The position numbers and the translations under genes are program-made. 64,000 nucleotides of DNA from Ignisphaera sp. Lineage in GTDB: Archaea > Thermoproteota > Thermoprotei_A > Sulfolobales > Ignisphaeraceae. Location of the stretch: NCBI GenBank assembly GCA_038889075.1, contig JAWAHS010000001.1:64001-128000 (forward strand), in the 5' to 3' direction. Below the pieces are notes generated by a model. It worked only from the letters and a program-made list of their open reading frames with translations. It searched no databases and had not been told where the DNA came from. The first letter of the stretch is position 1; every line of letters starts with the position of its first letter. Below, in pieces: positions 7,438-52,354 of this stretch.

Positions 7438-10272
7438 TTATCTACTGACCAATCTCCCTCCACCAGTAACGTCTTCCCATGATATATTTAATGCGGTGAA
7501 GAGCTGCTCTAATGTTGAAACCATTGCCTCTAGATATTTTTGTGTATCTATCTCAGATATTTTAGCCAATTGGATAGGTTTCACACCATCTTTACTTTTC
7601 ACCTTTACAAATGTTATTACATCACCAGGTGAGATGTTCACGTTATATCTTTGTAACATCAAGGCTGCCTTAACATGTTGAGGTGTAGTTTTCTTGTATT
7701 CGGAGAGAGGTTTTGAAAGACCCATGTGAAAGGCTACTTCATCAAGTGTTAGTAATTTATACTTAAGCAAAAGATAGTATTTTTCAAGGTCATCCTTAAC
7801 ACTATTGATTATCTTAAATGCATCCTCAGGTTCTTCTATGGAGGTCATCTTCTTCAAGATTTCTACAAATAGATTCTTTATAAAGTCAGGGGTATTCCTT
7901 TTTTTACCCATCATACCCTTTATATCCACCTCATTATTTGGTGTGACACCAACGTAGTTTTTCTTTAACGCAAAGGCTACGAATTTGTATCTTTTATCCA
8001 TTTCAAGTTCGAGACCGAAGGTCTCTTCGACCCACTTTTTAAGTTCTTCCAATTTTGATTGTTCGGGATTCCATATGAATAGGGAATCGGTATCACCATA
8101 CAGAACTCTGAGGCCTAGTTCCTCAGCCTTTCTAATTGTGGATGTGATAATTCTCCTACCGAGTGCTGTAACACTTTCTGCAACAGATGGTGCATAAAGT
8201 GGGAAAGTATCTGCACCAAATACACCATAAGCAGCATTAATGAAGACTTTCATAGCCCTTTGAACGGTATCGTACCAACTTCGTAATATCTCACTAATGT
8301 TCTTATCCTTTGATTTCTTCTTGTATATTTTTACTCTAAAATCTCTAAGCATACCAACAATCTCAGCTGTGAGACCTGGTTTGTCTAAACACACTTTATG
8401 CAGTACATTATTTGCTTCATCGATAATGTCGTTTACCTTGTTGCAGAGCGTTTCATCAGGATCTATAGTTTCGTAACTCAAGTTCCATTGTTTCATTATG
8501 GATGGGTATAGCGAGGCAAAGTCTAGTACTATAACATTAAAGAATAGACCTTGTGGAGGCTCTATAACTATTGCTCCAGCGTATTTCTTACCTTTAATTA
8601 TAGCCTCCGTGACCTTTTTACCTTTTAAACTCTGGATATCCTCCTGTCGTGGTATTAAATATCCTCTACGTCTGTGTTCCCAATAGAATAGATTCTTAAT
8701 CCATACCGAGACAGTAGATCTGCATACATCTTCTAATCCGAGCTTACTTATACGCATAAGCAATAGCATTAATTTCCATACGAGTTCTTCTGAAAATGTA
8801 GTAAGCTGTAAGGTTACTTCTGCATCTCTAAAGTTATAGTGTGCAAGCATTGCTAGATCTATTTTTCCGAGTTCGTCATCTAGCTGTACCTTACCTATTC
8901 CTAAAAGGGCTTGCGCTATACTGTCTAGGTTTGCTTCCTTGTATCGTCCTTCAAAGGCATATATCTGTATAGCTTTATTGCTAAAGAATTTATAAAGGTC
9001 AACATGTAGTGCTCTAGAGAACTTGGCTTCGAATTCTATTTTACCTCCTTTCAATACCTTCTTTACTTTTATACCAATCAACTCTTTTGGTATACCTAAT
9101 TTAAACATCCTAACATATAGGTAACGAATATCAAAATTATCGCCGTTAAAGCTCACTATTATAGGATATTGCAATATAATAGAAAGAAAATCTATCATCA
9201 TACCGTATTCATTATCATATATTTCGATATCAGCATCGCACACCACGTCTTTCAATATTTTTAGATTTTCTCTAAATAAAACGAAAACCTTTTTTATATT
9301 ATCATTAGAAGCCAGAGCTATGGATATGATAGGATATTCGGCTATATCTGGGGAAGGGACTCTTCCTTCAAATGGTGTATACACCTCTATATCTACAGCG
9401 ATTCTTTTTGGTGTAAACCATTTCGATTCAAAAAGTTTTGCAAAGTGTATAGCTATATCGGAGGATTCCGGAGGGAGAGCTAGCATTTTAACTATACTCT
9501 CCCTAAGACTTTCTATATCAACATCGTATATCTCTATAATCCTATCCCCATATATGGTATATGGAAGACCGGGAATCAGCTGCCTATCATAAATGTAATT
9601 TATATGGTATCTTATGTTAGCTTCCCAAGCAATAGGCACCTTTGTTCTTAAGGTTCTAACGGCAACGGGATCTTTTGTTACAATTTTTGTAAGAAGACGC
9701 TTTGTGCTATTTAGAGGATCGAATTTTTCTACAATTTCTACAGATTCAAATGAACTATGTCTAGTAATTTCACCTATCTTATTTACCTTATCGGGGGGGA
9801 TGTCCGTTAGGAAATACGGTTTGTGTCCAGTTTTATCATACCAGTAAACTAGCTCGTGAGTATTGGAATTGTAAAATATTAGAACAGCTTTTTTAAGTTC
9901 ACCATCATATTCGATTTGCATCAAGTATGCGTTATCCACTTTATCTATAATATTAGGACTCGTGTTAAACTTGATAGTGCGTGGATTTTCTATATTGAGG
10001 TTCTCTGGAACTTCTACTCGTATTCCAGAAACCTCATAGAGTTTACCGATTTTAGAACCGGATTCTGGCGGCGTTTCAACATATTGATCAGCTATTCTAA
10101 TAGAAGGACTAGAGGACTCAGCTAAAGATTTTTTTAATGAATCTACTTTAGCAGCATCGGATGGCGTTTGAGTTTCAGAGCTAGAAATATGGGGTATGGA
10201 CACTTCTTGCTTAGAATATCCATTTTTCTTCTTACTTTTTGTGAATTCTAACAATGATTTATTCTTTGACAT
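7438..10272 (-). CDS. polB1: Family B DNA polymerase, crenarchaeal PolB1
   Basis: ExoI AVDIEV, ExoII FNGDNFD, DFASLYPS, KVFINAAYG, YGDTDS; N-terminal WYDKTGHKPYFLTD typical of PolB1. Confidence 0.95.
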   Translation of the reverse strand: MSKNKSLLEFTKSKKKNGYSKQEVSIPHISSSETQTPSDAAKVDSLKKSLAESSSPSIRIADQYVETPPESGSKIGKLYEVSGIRVEVPENLNIENPRTIKFNTSPNIIDKVDNAYLMQIEYDGELKKAVLIFYNSNTHELVYWYDKTGHKPYFLTDIPPDKVNKIGEITRHSSFESVEIVEKFDPLNSTKRLLTKIVTKDPVAVRTLRTKVPIAWEANIRYHINYIYDRQLIPGLPYTIYGDRIIEIYDVDIESLRESIVKMLALPPESSDIAIHFAKLFESKWFTPKRIAVDIEVYTPFEGRVPSPDIAEYPIISIALASNDNIKKVFVLFRENLKILKDVVCDADIEIYDNEYGMMIDFLSIILQYPIIVSFNGDNFDIRYLYVRMFKLGIPKELIGIKVKKVLKGGKIEFEAKFSRALHVDLYKFFSNKAIQIYAFEGRYKEANLDSIAQALLGIGKVQLDDELGKIDLAMLAHYNFRDAEVTLQLTTFSEELVWKLMLLLMRISKLGLEDVCRSTVSVWIKNLFYWEHRRRGYLIPRQEDIQSLKGKKVTEAIIKGKKYAGAIVIEPPQGLFFNVIVLDFASLYPSIMKQWNLSYETIDPDETLCNKVNDIIDEANNVLHKVCLDKPGLTAEIVGMLRDFRVKIYKKKSKDKNISEILRSWYDTVQRAMKVFINAAYGVFGADTFPLYAPSVAESVTALGRRIITSTIRKAEELGLRVLYGDTDSLFIWNPEQSKLEELKKWVEETFGLELEMDKRYKFVAFALKKNYVGVTPNNEVDIKGMMGKKRNTPDFIKNLFVEILKKMTSIEEPEDAFKIINSVKDDLEKYYLLLKYKLLTLDEVAFHMGLSKPLSEYKKTTPQHVKAALMLQRYNVNISPGDVITFVKVKSKDGVKPIQLAKISEIDTQKYLEAMVSTLEQLFTALNISWEDVTGGGRLVSR

Positions 10273-30396: not shown

Positions 30397-30473
30397 AATA
30401 TTTTACTTAGAAATGGTATTACGCAAGTCCTTTGGATGCAATGCTATCAGTAGAAGGAAATTAGGGAGTTGAA

Positions 30474-30707
30474 CTGCAACTGAACAATTTATCTCTAAAT
30501 AAAGAAAGGAGGAATGCATTTAAACCTGTTATAGATTATATAATATGCAATAATTGCACAACGTGTATCGATCTCTGCAAATATAAAGCTATATATATCG
30601 ATAGCGTTGATGGATACGTAAAGATGGACTATGCCAAATGTAAGGAATGTGGAATATGTGTGAAGGTATGCCCATATGGGGCAATAAAGTATTATAGAAA
30701 GAAATGA
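30474..30707 (+). CDS. 2[4Fe-4S] ferredoxin (PorD-like), putative CTG start; missing from the ORF track
   Basis: Own translation: ...AFKPVIDYIICNNCTTCIDLCKYKAI...DYAKCKECGICVKVCPYGAI; TAG at 30462 closes the frame upstream with no ATG/GTG/TTG before the first Cys motif. Confidence 0.8.
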   Translation: MQLNNLSLNKERRNAFKPVIDYIICNNCTTCIDLCKYKAIYIDSVDGYVKMDYAKCKECGICVKVCPYGAIKYYRKK

Positions 30708-46098: not shown

Positions 46099-47157
46099 AT
46101 GAAGTACACCAATAGTGGAATTGTAGGTTGGGGGGTATACGTACCAAGGTACAGAATCTCCGCAAGAGACATCGCAAGAGCATGGGGTTACGACTTAGAT
46201 GCTCCCAATAACATCTGGATTGAAGAAAAGTCTGTAGGGAATATCGATGAGGATACTATAACCATAGGATACCAAGCATCATTGAATGCTATTAAAAGAG
46301 CTGGTATAAATCCGAGAGACATAGATGCTATATACTTAGGTACAGAAAGCAAGCCGTATGCCGTAAAGCCAGGTGCATCTATAATTGCTGAAGCCCTTGG
46401 AATTAAACCAGCACATCAAGTCGCTGATTTAGAGTTTGCATGTAGAGCTAGTAGTGAGGCAATTAGGATTGGCGCATCCTTAGTAGAGAGTGGGGCAGCT
46501 AGATATGTACTGGCAATAGGTGCGGATACTTCACAGAGTAGTCCAGGGGACGTGCTAGAATTTACAGCGAGTAGTGGTGGCGCGGCATACATCATAGGAT
46601 CACGGTCGAGAGCTGTTGCATATTTTGAGGGGTGTACAACTTATTCCACAGATACACCCGATTTCTGGAGAAGAGATGGGGCACCTTATCCCAGACACGG
46701 TGAAGGGTTTACTGGTGAGCCGGCATACTTTAATCATATACTTTTAGCTACTAAGCTATTAATGGAGGAATTAGGATTGAAGGTTTCAGACTTTGACTAT
46801 GCTGTGTTCCATCAACCAAATGGTAAATTCCCTCTTAGGGTTGGATCAATGCTCGGGCTGCCAAAGGAGAAAATATTACCAGGGTTGGTAACCCCGTATA
46901 TTGGAAACACGTATAATGGAGCAGTGCTAATAGGACTTGCAAAGATTTTGGAAGAAGCAAAACCTGGTCAGAGGATACTTGTTGTTTCATTTGGTAGTGG
47001 TGCTGGTAGTGATGCATTTAGTATTGTGGTAACTGATAGGATAGAAGATGTGATTGATAAAGCACCTAGGGTTTCATATTATATTAATAGGAAAATCCCA
47101 ATATCATATGACATGTATCTAAAGATGAAAGGGTTGATCAATAGATATAGGCTTTAA
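46099..47157 (+). CDS. Hydroxymethylglutaryl-CoA synthase (archaeal)
   Basis: [67 protein letters not shown]; GAGG RBS before ATG 46099. Confidence 0.93.
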
Positions 47158-47342
47158 CACTTATAGTTATCTAAGCATAGATTTAGTCGCTTTGCTAACG
47201 AACATAGAGTATCGACACCGACAATGGCCTTAGAACCCTTTTCACCCTTGAGTATAGCTGTTCTACCAATAATTTTAACAGAAGTTTTTTCACACATTTT
47301 ACAAGCCTTAGGAACATCTTTGAGTTTGATCCTTATATTCAG
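47154..47342 (-). CDS. Small Cys-containing protein, putative CTG start; missing from the ORF track
   Basis: Own translation (M)[61 protein letters not shown]; fills the gap between two genes; an internal ATG would give a shorter product. Confidence 0.5.
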
Positions 47343-49141: not shown

Positions 49142-49753
49142 ATGGTCGTCAAAAAAATTGCTGTACTTCAGAATATTAAATATAGGGAATGCAATGGAAT
49201 TATCAATAGAATAATTGATGGAGATGTAGACATCATTGTTATTTGTGGGGGGATCAGAGAATGCAGAAATGTAATTGATGTACCTAAAAATGTGTTTGGC
49301 ATTGTAGATCTAGAGGACGATGTGCATATTATAAAGCTTATGAAGAATAGAAATGTGTATATAGCAGGTAAGTGGAAGCTGTTAGAAGACGGTATCTGTA
49401 TAGGGGGTATTGATGCTAAGAATCCAGTTCAAAATCTTTTGATGATAATAGAAGAGCTACCGTATGGATGTAAGAATCTAGTTTTAGTGTCACGCTATCC
49501 AATAATAGGTTTAGATTGTTCTTCGATAGAAATATTCAAAAAGAAAATCTCGATAGGATTTACAACCAGTCTAATAGAGAAATTGCTGAATCGAATAGAA
49601 AAGATGGTGTTCATTTGTTGTAACAATACCTTAGATGGAGTTTGCACTGGGACCCCTATTAATGATAGATTTGTAAATGTATCTCTAATTGGGCATTTCA
49701 CAAAGATCACCATAGATTTTACTAATATTAGAAAAATTGCTATTGAGTACTAA
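49142..49753 (+). CDS. Degenerate calcineurin-like phosphoesterase homolog
   Basis: Motif order is kept (KIAVLQNI, DIIVICGGI, GIVDLEDD, LVSRYP) but the metal-binding D/H residues are replaced. Confidence 0.5.
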   Translation: MVVKKIAVLQNIKYRECNGIINRIIDGDVDIIVICGGIRECRNVIDVPKNVFGIVDLEDDVHIIKLMKNRNVYIAGKWKLLEDGICIGGIDAKNPVQNLLMIIEELPYGCKNLVLVSRYPIIGLDCSSIEIFKKKISIGFTTSLIEKLLNRIEKMVFICCNNTLDGVCTGTPINDRFVNVSLIGHFTKITIDFTNIRKIAIEY

Positions 49754-49768
49754 AAATGGTGATCGTTA

Positions 49769-51319
49769 CTGAGCTTTGTTGTACGTAGGACAAGAAAGGA
49801 ATTTATAAGATTCGTAAAGAAAGGAAAATCCAGTGATATAAAGATAGGCATTCTTATGCCAATGCCATACAACGCTGCTATCAACTCACTATTTTTTCAA
49901 ACAGCTTACGAATACATAAATAGTTTGGAGGGTGCTATAGCATACAGATACGTATACGACATCAAGAATGATGTATTGGAGGCTCTCGATACAGAGGCCA
50001 ATCTCAATAATCTTGATGCAGTCTTTATATCTTTATCTTTCGAGCTCGACTATGTAAATATTGCTAGAATTCTAGATAAACTCAATCTTTTACATCGATA
50101 TAAAGGTTATAGAAAACCTATATTAATTGCTGGAGGCATAGCTGTTACTTCAAATCCATTACCATTAAGTGGTATTGTCGATGCTGTTGTGATTGGCGAA
50201 GCTGATGAGATATTGAAAGAGCTTGTATATACTATGGGTGAAGATAGACCTTTTAATTATTTAGAAGATTTTAGTTGCATTTCTCTATTACCAATCAGAA
50301 ATAAGGTGAAAAGATGTTTTACTAGGGAGCTTAATCAAGCTCTGCATGCAATAAATCAGTTCTTTGCTATAGATGAAGAGCCTGTGTATGGATATGGAAT
50401 GAGGGTTGAGGTTTCTAGAGGATGTCCATATCTATGTGCATTTTGCATGGAAGGACACGTTCAGCATCCATTTAGGTATAGAAGTATGGAAGTATTGTGG
50501 AGAATTATAGAAAGAGGTTTAGAGAGTAACAGTGTTAAAAGGGTTATCTTGTATTCACTAGCATTATTTAGCGTACCGTTCATTGACATGTTATTAAGGA
50601 AATTTAGAGAGCACTCCATTAAGGTATCCTTTCCATCCCTACGAATTGACCATATAACCAAAGAACGTTTAGAGATGATTAGAACCTTGGGTCAGAGAAC
50701 ATTAACGATAGCTCCTGAAACCCTTATAAAAGGGATAGCATGTTTGATTGGTAAATGTTATGATACGGATCATCTCGAGGACATTATCAAAGAAAGTTTA
50801 AATTATAATTTTGATCATGTTAAACTATATTTAATTACAGGTTTTCCTAAAATGAGCATAGATGAGGAAGTGAATACATTTAGAAAATTCTTAACTAAAC
50901 TTTCATGGATAAGAAAATCAGGATTTTTAAGGGTCGTCCTCAATCCTCTTGTACCAAAACCATGGACGCCATACCAATTCTTACCACCTAAAATAATACT
51001 TAACTTAGCAGAAAACCTCAATCACTATCATAAGGTAGCAAAAGAATTTAATTTTGTTAGAATAGAGTCTATTGATTATAGATGGGCGTTTGCGCAAGCT
51101 ATATTAGCCCAAGGTGATGAAAAGATATCCGAGCTTGTAATTCAATGGGGTAGATATGGATCTAGCCTAAGAGGATTCTATAGAGTATTAGAATCATTAA
51201 ACATTATGTCTACGGATTACATCCATAATGGTTGGAGGGAACCACCATGGTATGAAATTATAGACATGGGTCTTCCATTTAATTATTTTAAAATGAGATA
51301 CCAATATCTCATTAGTTAA
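49769..51319 (+). CDS. Radical SAM protein with B12-binding-like N-terminal domain, putative CTG start
   Basis: SFELDY, AGGIAVTSNP, IGEAD, EVSRGCPYLCAFC, TIAPET, KLYLITG, VPKPWTP; frame open back to TGA 49760; GGTGA RBS 6 nt before CTG 49769. Confidence 0.82.
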   Translation: MSFVVRRTRKEFIRFVKKGKSSDIKIGILMPMPYNAAINSLFFQTAYEYINSLEGAIAYRYVYDIKNDVLEALDTEANLNNLDAVFISLSFELDYVNIARILDKLNLLHRYKGYRKPILIAGGIAVTSNPLPLSGIVDAVVIGEADEILKELVYTMGEDRPFNYLEDFSCISLLPIRNKVKRCFTRELNQALHAINQFFAIDEEPVYGYGMRVEVSRGCPYLCAFCMEGHVQHPFRYRSMEVLWRIIERGLESNSVKRVILYSLALFSVPFIDMLLRKFREHSIKVSFPSLRIDHITKERLEMIRTLGQRTLTIAPETLIKGIACLIGKCYDTDHLEDIIKESLNYNFDHVKLYLITGFPKMSIDEEVNTFRKFLTKLSWIRKSGFLRVVLNPLVPKPWTPYQFLPPKIILNLAENLNHYHKVAKEFNFVRIESIDYRWAFAQAILAQGDEKISELVIQWGRYGSSLRGFYRVLESLNIMSTDYIHNGWREPPWYEIIDMGLPFNYFKMRYQYLIS

Positions 51320-52190
51320 TTTGAATAATTAGAGGAGCTTTTATACTTTTTGAAATACTATTAAAATTGAGCAACTCTACCTTTTTGATAAGGTGGTCTC
51401 TGTATACATTGAAAACCTCTATACCTGTAGCAATGTCACCAAATTTCATAGTTAGAATATGCTTCTCAGCATCCGGATGTAATAGACTATCTAATCTTAA
51501 TGTTGATAATATAGATGGATGTATAATTATAATTGAAGCATCTTGGTGGCTTTTTAAAATGATGTTGTTAACTAATGGATCAGGTGAAGCCAGTATAACA
51601 GCATCAAATTTTCTACCATTATTATATATAGACACATGTTCACCTTTTATTAGTTCAGGCCATAGGGTATATCTAGGAATTATTGCAAATTTTGAAGAAT
51701 ACAACATAGAATAATATGCAAATGGTAATATAGAAATATCGTTACCAACAATTAAGGTGCTGAGTCCTTTAATGGTGTCAAGAACCTTTTTATGAATAGA
51801 AAGTGAAGCTATAAGTAACATTTCTAAGTCGTTAAATGCTTTTTGAGATGCCTCTAGGACATACTTTATATCAATGCTGTATATGCTTTGGCATGCACCA
51901 TCGACCTCTATAGGAGCATTAGCTGATACAGGAAATACTATCACTCTGCTACCTTCAGAGATGCCTTGAACACTTACACCAATTCCTACCACCTTGCCTA
52001 TCGCAATGGTACCTAACACCCGTTTATAATCTTTAGAAACTGTAAAACATTTGCTCAATGCCTCATCGGCTATCGACAGGTAAACATATTTTACCTCTAC
52101 TAAAATCTCATCTTTTCTTAACAGAGAACCAGTATAGCTATCAATAGTTGCGTCACCACAGTAGTGTACAATAACTCTCTTATATGATAT
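51312..52190 (-). CDS. Degenerate MDR/alcohol dehydrogenase-like protein, putative ATA start
   Basis: Extended N-terminus YKRVIVH..DEILVEVKYV, then VLG..AIGKVVGIG..V..ISEGSRV (GroES-like); lacks Zn ligands and GxGxxG; GAGGTG RBS 7 nt before ATA 52190. Confidence 0.65.
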   Translation of the reverse strand: MSYKRVIVHYCGDATIDSYTGSLLRKDEILVEVKYVYLSIADEALSKCFTVSKDYKRVLGTIAIGKVVGIGVSVQGISEGSRVIVFPVSANAPIEVDGACQSIYSIDIKYVLEASQKAFNDLEMLLIASLSIHKKVLDTIKGLSTLIVGNDISILPFAYYSMLYSSKFAIIPRYTLWPELIKGEHVSIYNNGRKFDAVILASPDPLVNNIILKSHQDASIIIIHPSILSTLRLDSLLHPDAEKHILTMKFGDIATGIEVFNVYRDHLIKKVELLNFNSISKSIKAPLIIQIN

Positions 52191-52354
52191 GTTTAAACAC
52201 CTCGCACAGTCTTGAGCTTATACCTCTAAGAAGAGATATCTCTGCTATAAGATTTACTGGTGTTGTTAACAATCGTATTAATATGTCTCTGTATTAGGAT
52301 ATAGCGAATGGATTGTAATTGAAATAACAGAGGGAATGTGAGATAACCATAGTA

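Follow-up and report, generated by a model that had tools for sequence, protein, structure and literature searches.

Probable near-cognate start codons behind strong Shine-Dalgarno sequences in an Ignisphaera genome and its relatives

Within a 64,000-nucleotide stretch of the genome of an Ignisphaera sp. there are two adjoining genes whose reading frames extend well upstream of the first ATG, GTG or TTG codon. We refer to this stretch as the window. It comprises positions 64001-128000 of contig C1 in genome G000, an assembly of 1.95 Mb in 25 contigs with 39.4% G+C, and positions in the window are used here for both genes. One gene encodes a radical SAM protein with a B12-binding domain, and the other, on the opposite strand, an ADH-like protein with a GroES-like fold. 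Each extension begins just behind a strong Shine-Dalgarno (SD) sequence, with CTG and ATA respectively at the place where a start codon would be expected. The features are collected in Table 1. Orthologs were sought in 30 relatives.

Table 1. Features of the two focal genes, and of two further candidates, in the window
Feature	Position	Strand	Remarks
Upstream gene	49142..49753	+	203 residues, no Pfam match; 15 bases separate the end of its TAA from the CTG
SD sequence GGTGATC	49758..49764	+	7-base match to AGGAGGTGATCC (16S 3' end), aligned spacing 6
TGA bounding the radical SAM frame	49760-62	+	same TGA as in GGTGA 49758-62
CTG, proposed radical SAM start	49769..49771	+	aligned with TTG in the three closest relatives, same SD-N6
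B12-binding-domain radical SAM gene	49769..51319	+	516 codons plus stop; Pfam matches
ATG, first in-frame canonical codon, probably internal	49856..49858	+	no SD match of at least 4 bases in the scan
ADH-like (GroES-like fold) gene	51312..52190	-	292 codons plus stop; ADH_N below threshold
TTG, first in-frame canonical codon, probably internal	52056..52058	-	no SD of at least 4 bases at spacing 4-8
ATA, proposed ADH-like start	52188..52190	-	G009 likewise ATA, with no canonical start
SD sequence GAGGTG	52198..52203	-	6 bases matched; aligned spacing 6 on the count used for GGTGA
Ferredoxin frame lacking any canonical start in frame	30465..30707	+	ATG 30514-16 out of frame; T TTA AAC 30519-25
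Microprotein	47157..47297	-	normal ATG 47297-47295; 5/5 orthologs have ATG or GTG at the aligned codon

The radical SAM frame is open from position 49763, with GGTGA, six bases and then CTG 49769. The 29 codons from this CTG to ATG 49856 include no in-frame ATG, GTG or TTG (the canonical codons), and the extension reads LSFVVRRTRKEFIRFVKKGKSSDIKIGIL. An earlier note on this DNA had described GGTGA-N6-CTG, a 29-codon extension and a bounding TGA, and all three are confirmed letter by letter. The protein matches PF19864 (Radical_SAM_N2) with 65 bits against a cut-off of 29 and PF04055 (Radical_SAM) with 42.2 bits against 29.5, and the CxxxCxxC motif is present as CPYLCAFC. The CTG follows the stop codon of the upstream gene by so few bases that translational coupling may help.

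Alignments with orthologs from the same genus reach residues 1-9 of the stop-bounded radical SAM frame, and the extension aligns with orthologs in 14/14 relatives. At correctly oriented loci all 14 have a canonical start at the N-terminus, and in the three closest (75, 72 and 68% identical) this is a TTG exactly aligned with CTG 49769, placed at N6 behind GGTGA, GGTGGTAA or GGTGTAA. Thus this species carries a TTG-to-CTG transition at the start of the gene, and CTG is found there in this species only (1/15 genomes). The orthologs are 513-522 residues long, and the public form for this species is truncated to 487 residues (P0031). In G009 the codon aligned with ATG 49856 is ATA.

For the ADH-like gene the order on the minus strand is TAA, open frame, GAGGTG 52203-52198, seven bases and ATA 52190-52188. 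A further 44 codons lead to TTG 52058 with no canonical codon between, and they contain the sequence ...RKDEILVEV.... The earlier description of this frame, GAGGTG-N7-ATA with a 44-codon extension, an upstream TAA and the strand DEILVEV, holds on reading the minus strand, as does the statement that neither extension includes an in-frame ATG, GTG or TTG. The Pfam profile ADH_N scores 22.5 bits, short of its 23.5-bit cut-off (E = 1.4e-4), with no second domain matched, and this match begins at residue 35 of the stop-bounded frame, which is upstream of TTG 52058.

The ADH-like ortholog adjoins the radical SAM gene in 14/14 relatives and its extension aligns in all of them. ATG, GTG or TTG lies within one codon of the proposed start in 13/14, and ATA alone is found in one, G009. 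In the four closest genomes the local sequences are AGGTGTTTAAAC ATA TCA TAT in G000, AGGTGTTGGCAC ATA GTA CAT in G009 (where the first canonical codon is codon 40), ...GAT ACA GTG TAC in G012 and ...TCC ATA ATG TTC in G014. Ten more distant relatives open the protein with M-Y-x-R, using ATG or TTG at the aligned place. The simplest history suggested by these sequences is an ancestral tandem ATA-NTG, of which the second codon would have been lost separately in G000 and G009, and the first in G012.

The 3' end of the 16S rRNA of G000 reads ...GGATCACCTCCT, or ...GGAUCACCUCCU where it pairs with the SD sequence. Both focal SD sequences (GGTGATC-N6 and GAGGTG) match it, and their spacing is that of the canonical starts. 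The 16S 3'-end stretch occurs twice on the minus strand of contig C19 of G000, at offsets 5103 and 5330, which are 227 bases apart. At least 90 bases around GGATCACCTCC are identical in the two copies, and this may be a duplication in the assembly.

We have considered whether the sequence itself could be wrong at the two codons. The window comes from an assembly in 25 contigs, and the earlier note had allowed that reads might carry ATG at these sites. Contigs from three other DNA studies (runs X6, X9 and X8) span 49700-52300; in all of them 49769-71 and 52188-90 are unchanged, and there is no indel anywhere in that interval. The codons are CTG and ATA. Contigs from an RNA library (X20) cover 49700-49925 with the SD sequence and the CTG retained in a slightly different strain, with differences at 49740 and 49873; they fall short of the ADH-like gene's 5' end. 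Because such a library may also contain DNA, these contigs count only weakly as a sign of transcription. Starts of this kind are moreover found in a genome assembled as a single contig (see below), and an error of sequencing or assembly has a negligible probability.

It might be supposed instead that translation begins at ATG 49856 and TTG 52058, and that the upstream stretches are untranslated relics of longer genes. The public gene call gives the 487-residue form, this species alone has the CTG, and canonical codons are far more efficient in the systems tested (10.1101/063800). Yet the extensions are open and conserved at the protein level in all 14 relatives, and the first strand of each domain, B12-binding-like and GroES-like, lies within them. 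A scan for SD sequences before ATG 49856 and TTG 52058 was empty. Strain differences within the ADH-like extension are mild, with three synonymous and three conservative changes and no stops or indels. Applied to other genes of this genome, the same logic would remove P-loops and the first repeat of the TATA-binding protein (TBP). We therefore regard downstream initiation as improbable. Judged from these comparisons, translation of the radical SAM gene probably starts at CTG 49769 and that of the ADH-like gene at ATA 52190.

If this is so, then similar starts might be present elsewhere in the genome. An initial survey of G000 revealed many coding-looking extensions with no canonical start that hold P-loops, the HAD DxD motif and similar features, each with GGTGA followed by CTG, ATA or ATT at N6-7. 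For a systematic count we used a gene set of 1932 open reading frames (ORFs) from our own simple dicodon gene finder, which is a crude stand-in for annotation. A broad test of enrichment that took in codons 1-60 of every gene produced weak signals only (CTG 1.5x, ATA 1.0x). Internal codons dilute such a test, and in its place we used one restricted to ORFs that are bounded upstream by the TGA of a GGTGA. At a spacing of N6 this TGA is an in-frame stop, and so the true start must be codon 3 of the ORF. Codon 3 was scored after dropping ORFs shorter than 80 codons and those touching contig ends. We define near-cognate as a codon that differs from ATG at one position; ATA, CTG, ATT, ATC and ACG were seen.

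The whole G000 assembly has 115 such GGTGA-bounded ORFs, 91 of them with ATG, GTG or TTG among codons 1-4. Canonical starts peak sharply at GGTGA-N6, where 65/115 have a canonical codon 3 (25 ATG, 18 GTG and 22 TTG). In the 24 ORFs with no canonical codon at positions 1-4, codon 3 is near-cognate in 16 (eight ATA, three CTG, three ATT, one ATC and one ACG), in the same register as the canonical starts. Codon usage predicts 11.6%, or about 2.8 ORFs (binomial p = 2.9e-10). The other eight codons are TCA (twice), TGT, GGT, AAA, AGA, CGC and CCT.

Controls show no such enrichment. In the same 24 ORFs a near-cognate codon is found at codon 2 in two and at codon 4 in one. ORFs bounded by a TGA with no preceding GG give 25/208 near-cognate codons, and those with no GGTG nearby 102/834. 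A looser count, of in-frame codons in start-less extensions with an exact GGTGA at N5-7, gave 27 near-cognates in 69 matches where about 8 are expected; 99 first-canonical starts share this SD sequence.

We have applied the GGTGA-bounded test to three other genomes. In the first 1.2 Mb of the 1.876-Mb single contig of G015, a member of the same genus, there are 57 bounded ORFs, of which 14 are non-canonical, and 12 of these are near-cognate (five ATA, four CTG and three ATT). The first 0.8 of 1.32 Mb of G028, from another family of the same order, gives 39 bounded ORFs, six non-canonical and five near-cognate (three ATA, one CTG and one ACG). For G040, from a fourth family, 0.4 Mb gives 17, three and one (ACG), which is too few sites to judge. 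Thus the pattern holds in a genome assembled as a single contig and is not confined to Ignisphaera. The earlier note had proposed relaxed start-codon selection in this lineage. The broad use is borne out, with near-cognate starts in 16/115 bounded ORFs of G000 and 12/57 of G015, but the restriction to the lineage is not, given 5/39 in G028.

Could near-cognate codons simply be what remains of former starts, recently lost by mutation in genes that are dying or idle? TTG is converted to CTG by a single transition, and the codon that follows the ATA of the ADH-like gene varies among close relatives (TCA, GTA, GTG and ATG), as decay would have it. Decay of starts would however also yield codons that neighbor only GTG or TTG, such as GTA, GTT, TTA, TTT and GAG, whereas pairing with a CAU anticodon would not. 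These make up about 19% of codon usage, and GTG and TTG together supply most of the canonical codons at position 3 (69/124). Pooling G000, G015 and G028, they occur at 0/44 non-canonical codon-3 sites, while 33/44 are one mismatch from ATG, and this speaks against decay. In addition both focal ORFs run uninterrupted, for 292 and 516 codons, and near-cognate starts on three core genes (see below) persist across species that are 50-75% identical, with the third base drifting between A, T and C. Decay is thus a very improbable explanation, and near-cognate initiation remains the preferred one.

Near-cognate and canonical starts have SD matches of indistinguishable length (5.81 against 5.82, p = 0.90), and the proportion lying within 30 bases of an upstream gene differs slightly, 10/16 against 49%. 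Pfam domains begin 2-21 residues past nine of the proposed near-cognate starts, and in other genes of G000 the first canonical codon comes only after P-loops or the HAD DxD motif. Of 943 ORFs of G000 with a match in G015, 42 have at least eight aligned residues before the first canonical codon, and about half of these we judged convincing by reading. A near-cognate codon with an SD match of at least four bases is present in 19/42.

Several of the genes concerned are central to gene expression. The initiation factor aIF1A has GGTGA-N6/7-ATA and a conserved tail of the IPDKKKK type in 8/8 Ignisphaera, and in G012 and G009 there is no canonical codon before the OB fold. In another family (f2) two of the three aIF1A genes shown start with CTG, again lacking any canonical codon ahead of the OB fold. 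In 7/7 Ignisphaera the codon aligned at the TBP start is ATT, and in three genomes no canonical codon appears until codon 52-81, within the first TBP repeat. An Obg-like GTPase starts with ATT in G000 and G009, ATA in G015, ATC in G012 and G014, and ATG in G005 and G008; G012 and G009 have an additional GTG four codons upstream. In G000 the aIF1A gene with its ATA is directly followed by a gene for RIO1 kinase, with a proposed CTG start behind GGTGGA-N6 (C1:267653-268837, plus strand, L119). Both genes of this pair would therefore use near-cognate starts.

Comparison of G000 with G015 reveals turnover of starts in both directions between orthologs. A cytidylate-kinase-like gene has CTG in G000 and TTG in G015, and an L7Ae/L30e-family gene has ATA and ATG respectively, while a PurQ-like gene has GTG in G000 and CTG in G015. 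Two others have ATT in both species, a PheRS-alpha-like gene and that at C2+129265. Eight of the 16 near-cognate genes of G000 were unmatched in the 1.2 Mb of G015 examined. The conserved weak starts on aIF1A, TBP and the Obg-like GTPase look more like maintained tuning of translation. Those of the two focal genes look more like tolerated drift, with all 14 relatives canonical for the radical SAM gene and one of 14 sharing the ATA of the ADH-like gene. Translational tuning of the focal genes, which the earlier note had offered as an alternative, is plausible.

An out-of-frame canonical codon that overlaps the SD sequence might initiate instead, with a subsequent shift of frame into the gene. 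Such codons exist at ATG 49756, at GTG 49759 and as the GTG within the GAGGTG of the ADH-like gene, where TTTAAAC also lies between the SD sequence and the ATA, and two other genes in G000 do look frameshift-dependent (ferredoxin, and an arcTGT-like gene for which this holds in G015 as well; both are described below). But every GGTGA contains GTG, which makes an out-of-frame GTG inevitable. The ADH-like gene needs a +1 shift, while T TTA AAC supports a shift of -1, out of the frame of the gene, and G009 lacks the heptamer and yet has the same ATA. Close relatives require no shift, and there is no SD sequence before ATG 49756. Such recoding is very improbable.

Direct initiation at near-cognate codons thus remains our preferred explanation. 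From the observed position, conservation and enrichment of these codons, and the correctness of the sequence that carries them, the following mechanism is suggested. The duplex of the SD sequence with the 3' end of 16S rRNA would set the codon lying six bases behind GGUGA in the P site, and the initiator Met-tRNA (anticodon CAU) would be accepted at that codon despite one mismatch. The protein would then start with methionine, probably in lower yield than from AUG, GUG or UUG; the decoding, its efficiency and any regulatory use are what we infer here. AUA, AUU, AUC, CUG and, rarely, ACG would be regular SD-dependent starts in this Ignisphaera genome and its relatives. Some would have become fixed on central genes, while others, including both focal ones, would recently have replaced canonical codons. 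The best reading of these comparisons is that the focal starts belong to a genome-wide habit, common at least to the genus and to one other family.

Several points weigh against this interpretation. Its support comes from comparison of sequences, and the gene set of G000 was generated by the dicodon finder rather than taken from curated annotation. Of the 42 conserved extensions, 23 have no near-cognate codon with an SD sequence, so that other mechanisms, or noise, are present too. In E. coli, near-cognates reach only 1-2% of the AUG level (10.1101/063800), and aIF1 of S. solfataricus rejects AUU in vitro (PMC4705826). Set against these, efficient use in Ignisphaera is an assumption. Since the CTG of the radical SAM gene is confined to this species, it could be a mildly harmful mutation that became fixed and not a feature in use. 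Lastly, 165 bases separate the ADH-like gene from its upstream neighbor, and there are TATA-like motifs 20-60 bases upstream. Its transcript could consequently begin at or after the SD sequence, and the SD mechanism would then be void for that gene.

The earlier note had proposed a search for fidelity substitutions in the initiation machinery. The initiator tRNA is ordinary in G000 and G015, with A1-U72, three G-C pairs and a CAT anticodon. Its gene in G000 (C17:4984-5090, plus strand) has an insertion of about 30 bases in the T-loop, and the G015 copy is uninterrupted but otherwise identical; aragorn alone did not report the initiator tRNA gene in G000. By contrast, aIF1 does exhibit a change that is specific to the genus. 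In aIF1 (C1:2029-2244, L126 in G000), loop 1 is R-K-M/L-G-K in 7/7 Ignisphaera and R-[RK]-[YFW]-[GN]-[RK] in the 27/27 other genomes of the order. On alignment with a solved aIF1, the methionine or leucine is equivalent to Y32 of P. abyssi.

Loss of this aromatic side chain might weaken proofreading and so account for the wide use of near-cognate starts in Ignisphaera. The distribution of the residue, Met or Leu in all seven Ignisphaera and aromatic in all 27 other genomes, is in keeping with this, and in P. abyssi the Y32A mutation leaves aIF1 and mRNA unable to bind cooperatively to the 30S subunit (PMC6237735). However, the two sampled members of the family of G028 keep phenylalanine, and yet G028 has near-cognate starts at a frequency similar to G000. 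Two f2 genomes with tyrosine have CTG starts on aIF1A. As the cause of near-cognate use the loop-1 change is rather unlikely on this distribution, and we treat it as a lead, not an explanation.

The earlier note had counted up to four cases of non-canonical initiation in the 64 kb. Among 64 ORFs, the two focal ones are solid, the microprotein has been rejected and the ferredoxin is ambiguous. Ferredoxin orthologs start MHRP or MGKP, two or three residues before P[VI]IDY. The extension of the frame back to CTG 30474 is not conserved, and that CTG has only GGAG-N5 in front. With five bases instead of three before CCT, a retained ATG CAT (30514) is out of the ferredoxin frame. The frame of this ATG stops after six codons, and within it T TTA AAC, a classic slippery heptamer, would let ribosomes slip by -1 into that of the ferredoxin. 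This heptamer is unconserved; five relatives have in-frame canonical ferredoxin starts and no heptamer. On this comparison the gene looks frameshifted rather than CTG-initiated, and the break may be a frameshift mutation, a recoding site or the mark of a dying gene.

For the microprotein, CTG 47342 had been proposed as the start. All five orthologs start right before CEK, and the stretch upstream is not conserved. The protein itself is conserved in 5/5 Ignisphaera searched; it has 47 residues, contains cysteine, ends in NYKC and is encoded beside an HMG-CoA-synthase-like gene. Start-less stretches at 7438, 10397, 16578, 23456, 34689 and 56174 were rejected, as they align with G015 only downstream of canonical starts.

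Two genes outside the window have unusual 5' ends. In the arcTGT-like gene of G000 (C12:33899 onward, plus strand) and that of G015 a stop is followed by AGT/GTT TGT TTC GAR ATA AAR, with no near-cognate codon. TTG-TTT-CGA is present in the -1 frame of both, and so a +1 shift on UUU-C before CGA would give M-F-E-I-K-E. This frame break is conserved between two species that are 58% identical. The second gene is a Cbf5-like ORF in G000 (GDPKVTGVLP; C1:404898 onward, plus strand), which has a G+C-rich open stretch upstream and AGG where G015 has ATG. The stretch is probably the intron reported for crenarchaeal cbf5 mRNA (PMC2738675), and not a matter of start codons.

If near-cognate starts are used as we suggest, this bears on annotation. 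The 487-residue radical SAM protein and aIF1A forms of 92-95 residues from JGI and Logan (P0006, P0004 and P0010) are examples of shortened public forms. Prodigal, limited to ATG, GTG and TTG, was run on the genome of the Ignisphaera type strain (PMC3035270) and cannot place such starts. A review has archaea permitting UUG and GUG besides AUG (PMC4705826), a textbook rule that would be too narrow for at least this group. TBP, aIF1A and a GTPase associated with the ribosome all have conserved weak starts, which would point to translational control of the machinery of expression, and the change in loop 1 of aIF1 would offer a testable handle on the stringency of start-codon selection in initiation of the archaeal and eukaryotic type.

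A wider model may be put forward tentatively, although we think it more doubtful than probable. In Ignisphaera, and perhaps in more hyperthermophilic Thermoproteota of the order, AUA, AUU, AUC and CUG would be ordinary SD-dependent starts for about 1/7 of strongly SD-led genes. The AUA of aIF1A and the CUG of the RIO kinase would form a feedback loop, similar to that of infC, that sets the permissiveness, and loss of the loop-1 aromatic would be part of the relaxed setting. Under this model, gene callers confined to ATG, GTG and TTG would systematically cut short dozens of proteins in each genome of such lineages.

Initiation of this kind is known elsewhere. In E. coli the near-cognates are the same set, AUA, AUC, AUU and CUG, as in G000 (10.1101/063800). 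As would be the case here, the AUU starts of E. coli infC and pcnB are SD-dependent, with a single mismatch to the initiator anticodon tolerated, and in both organisms a gene for an initiation factor carries a weak start, infC in E. coli and aIF1A in Ignisphaera. The frequency is very different. In E. coli only two cases are confirmed, and annotated non-canonical starts come to about 0.05% of genes in the set cited, obtained by subtraction from the printed percentages (10.1101/063800), whereas near-cognates are 14-21% of GGTGA-N6 starts in Ignisphaera. The factors differ as well, for archaea have aIF1, aIF1A and aIF2 and no IF3. Autoregulation of aIF1A in the manner of infC is hypothetical, and in two reports start-codon discrimination is described for archaeal aIF1 but not for aIF1A (PMC4705826, PMC6237735).

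Closer to Ignisphaera, CUG, AUU and AUA starts were deduced from homology and ribosome-binding sites in SSV10, a fusellovirus of the Sulfolobales (PMC6080066). Unlike the present case this concerns three viral ORFs and has no statistics, conservation analysis or cellular genes (PMC6080066). The starts of NCBI table 11 have already led two records (P0003 and P0015) to read M at the aIF1A ATA of G009 and G008, as single annotation decisions with no description of any pattern. In the literature searched, which included papers on Ignisphaera, we found no description of widespread CUG, AUA and AUU starts in archaea, although papers or supplements outside that search could hold one. The kind of event is known, but as far as we could see there is no description of how often it occurs here, of how it is retained on core genes across an archaeal genus, or of the correlate in aIF1.

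In eukaryotes near-cognate initiation is under the control of eIF1 and eIF1A, which are homologous to aIF1 and aIF1A. The eIF1 gene has a start in poor context, such that a weak start on the gene of a fidelity factor acts as a feedback device. Archaea differ from eukaryotes in that there is no scanning, and the SD sequence fixes the site.

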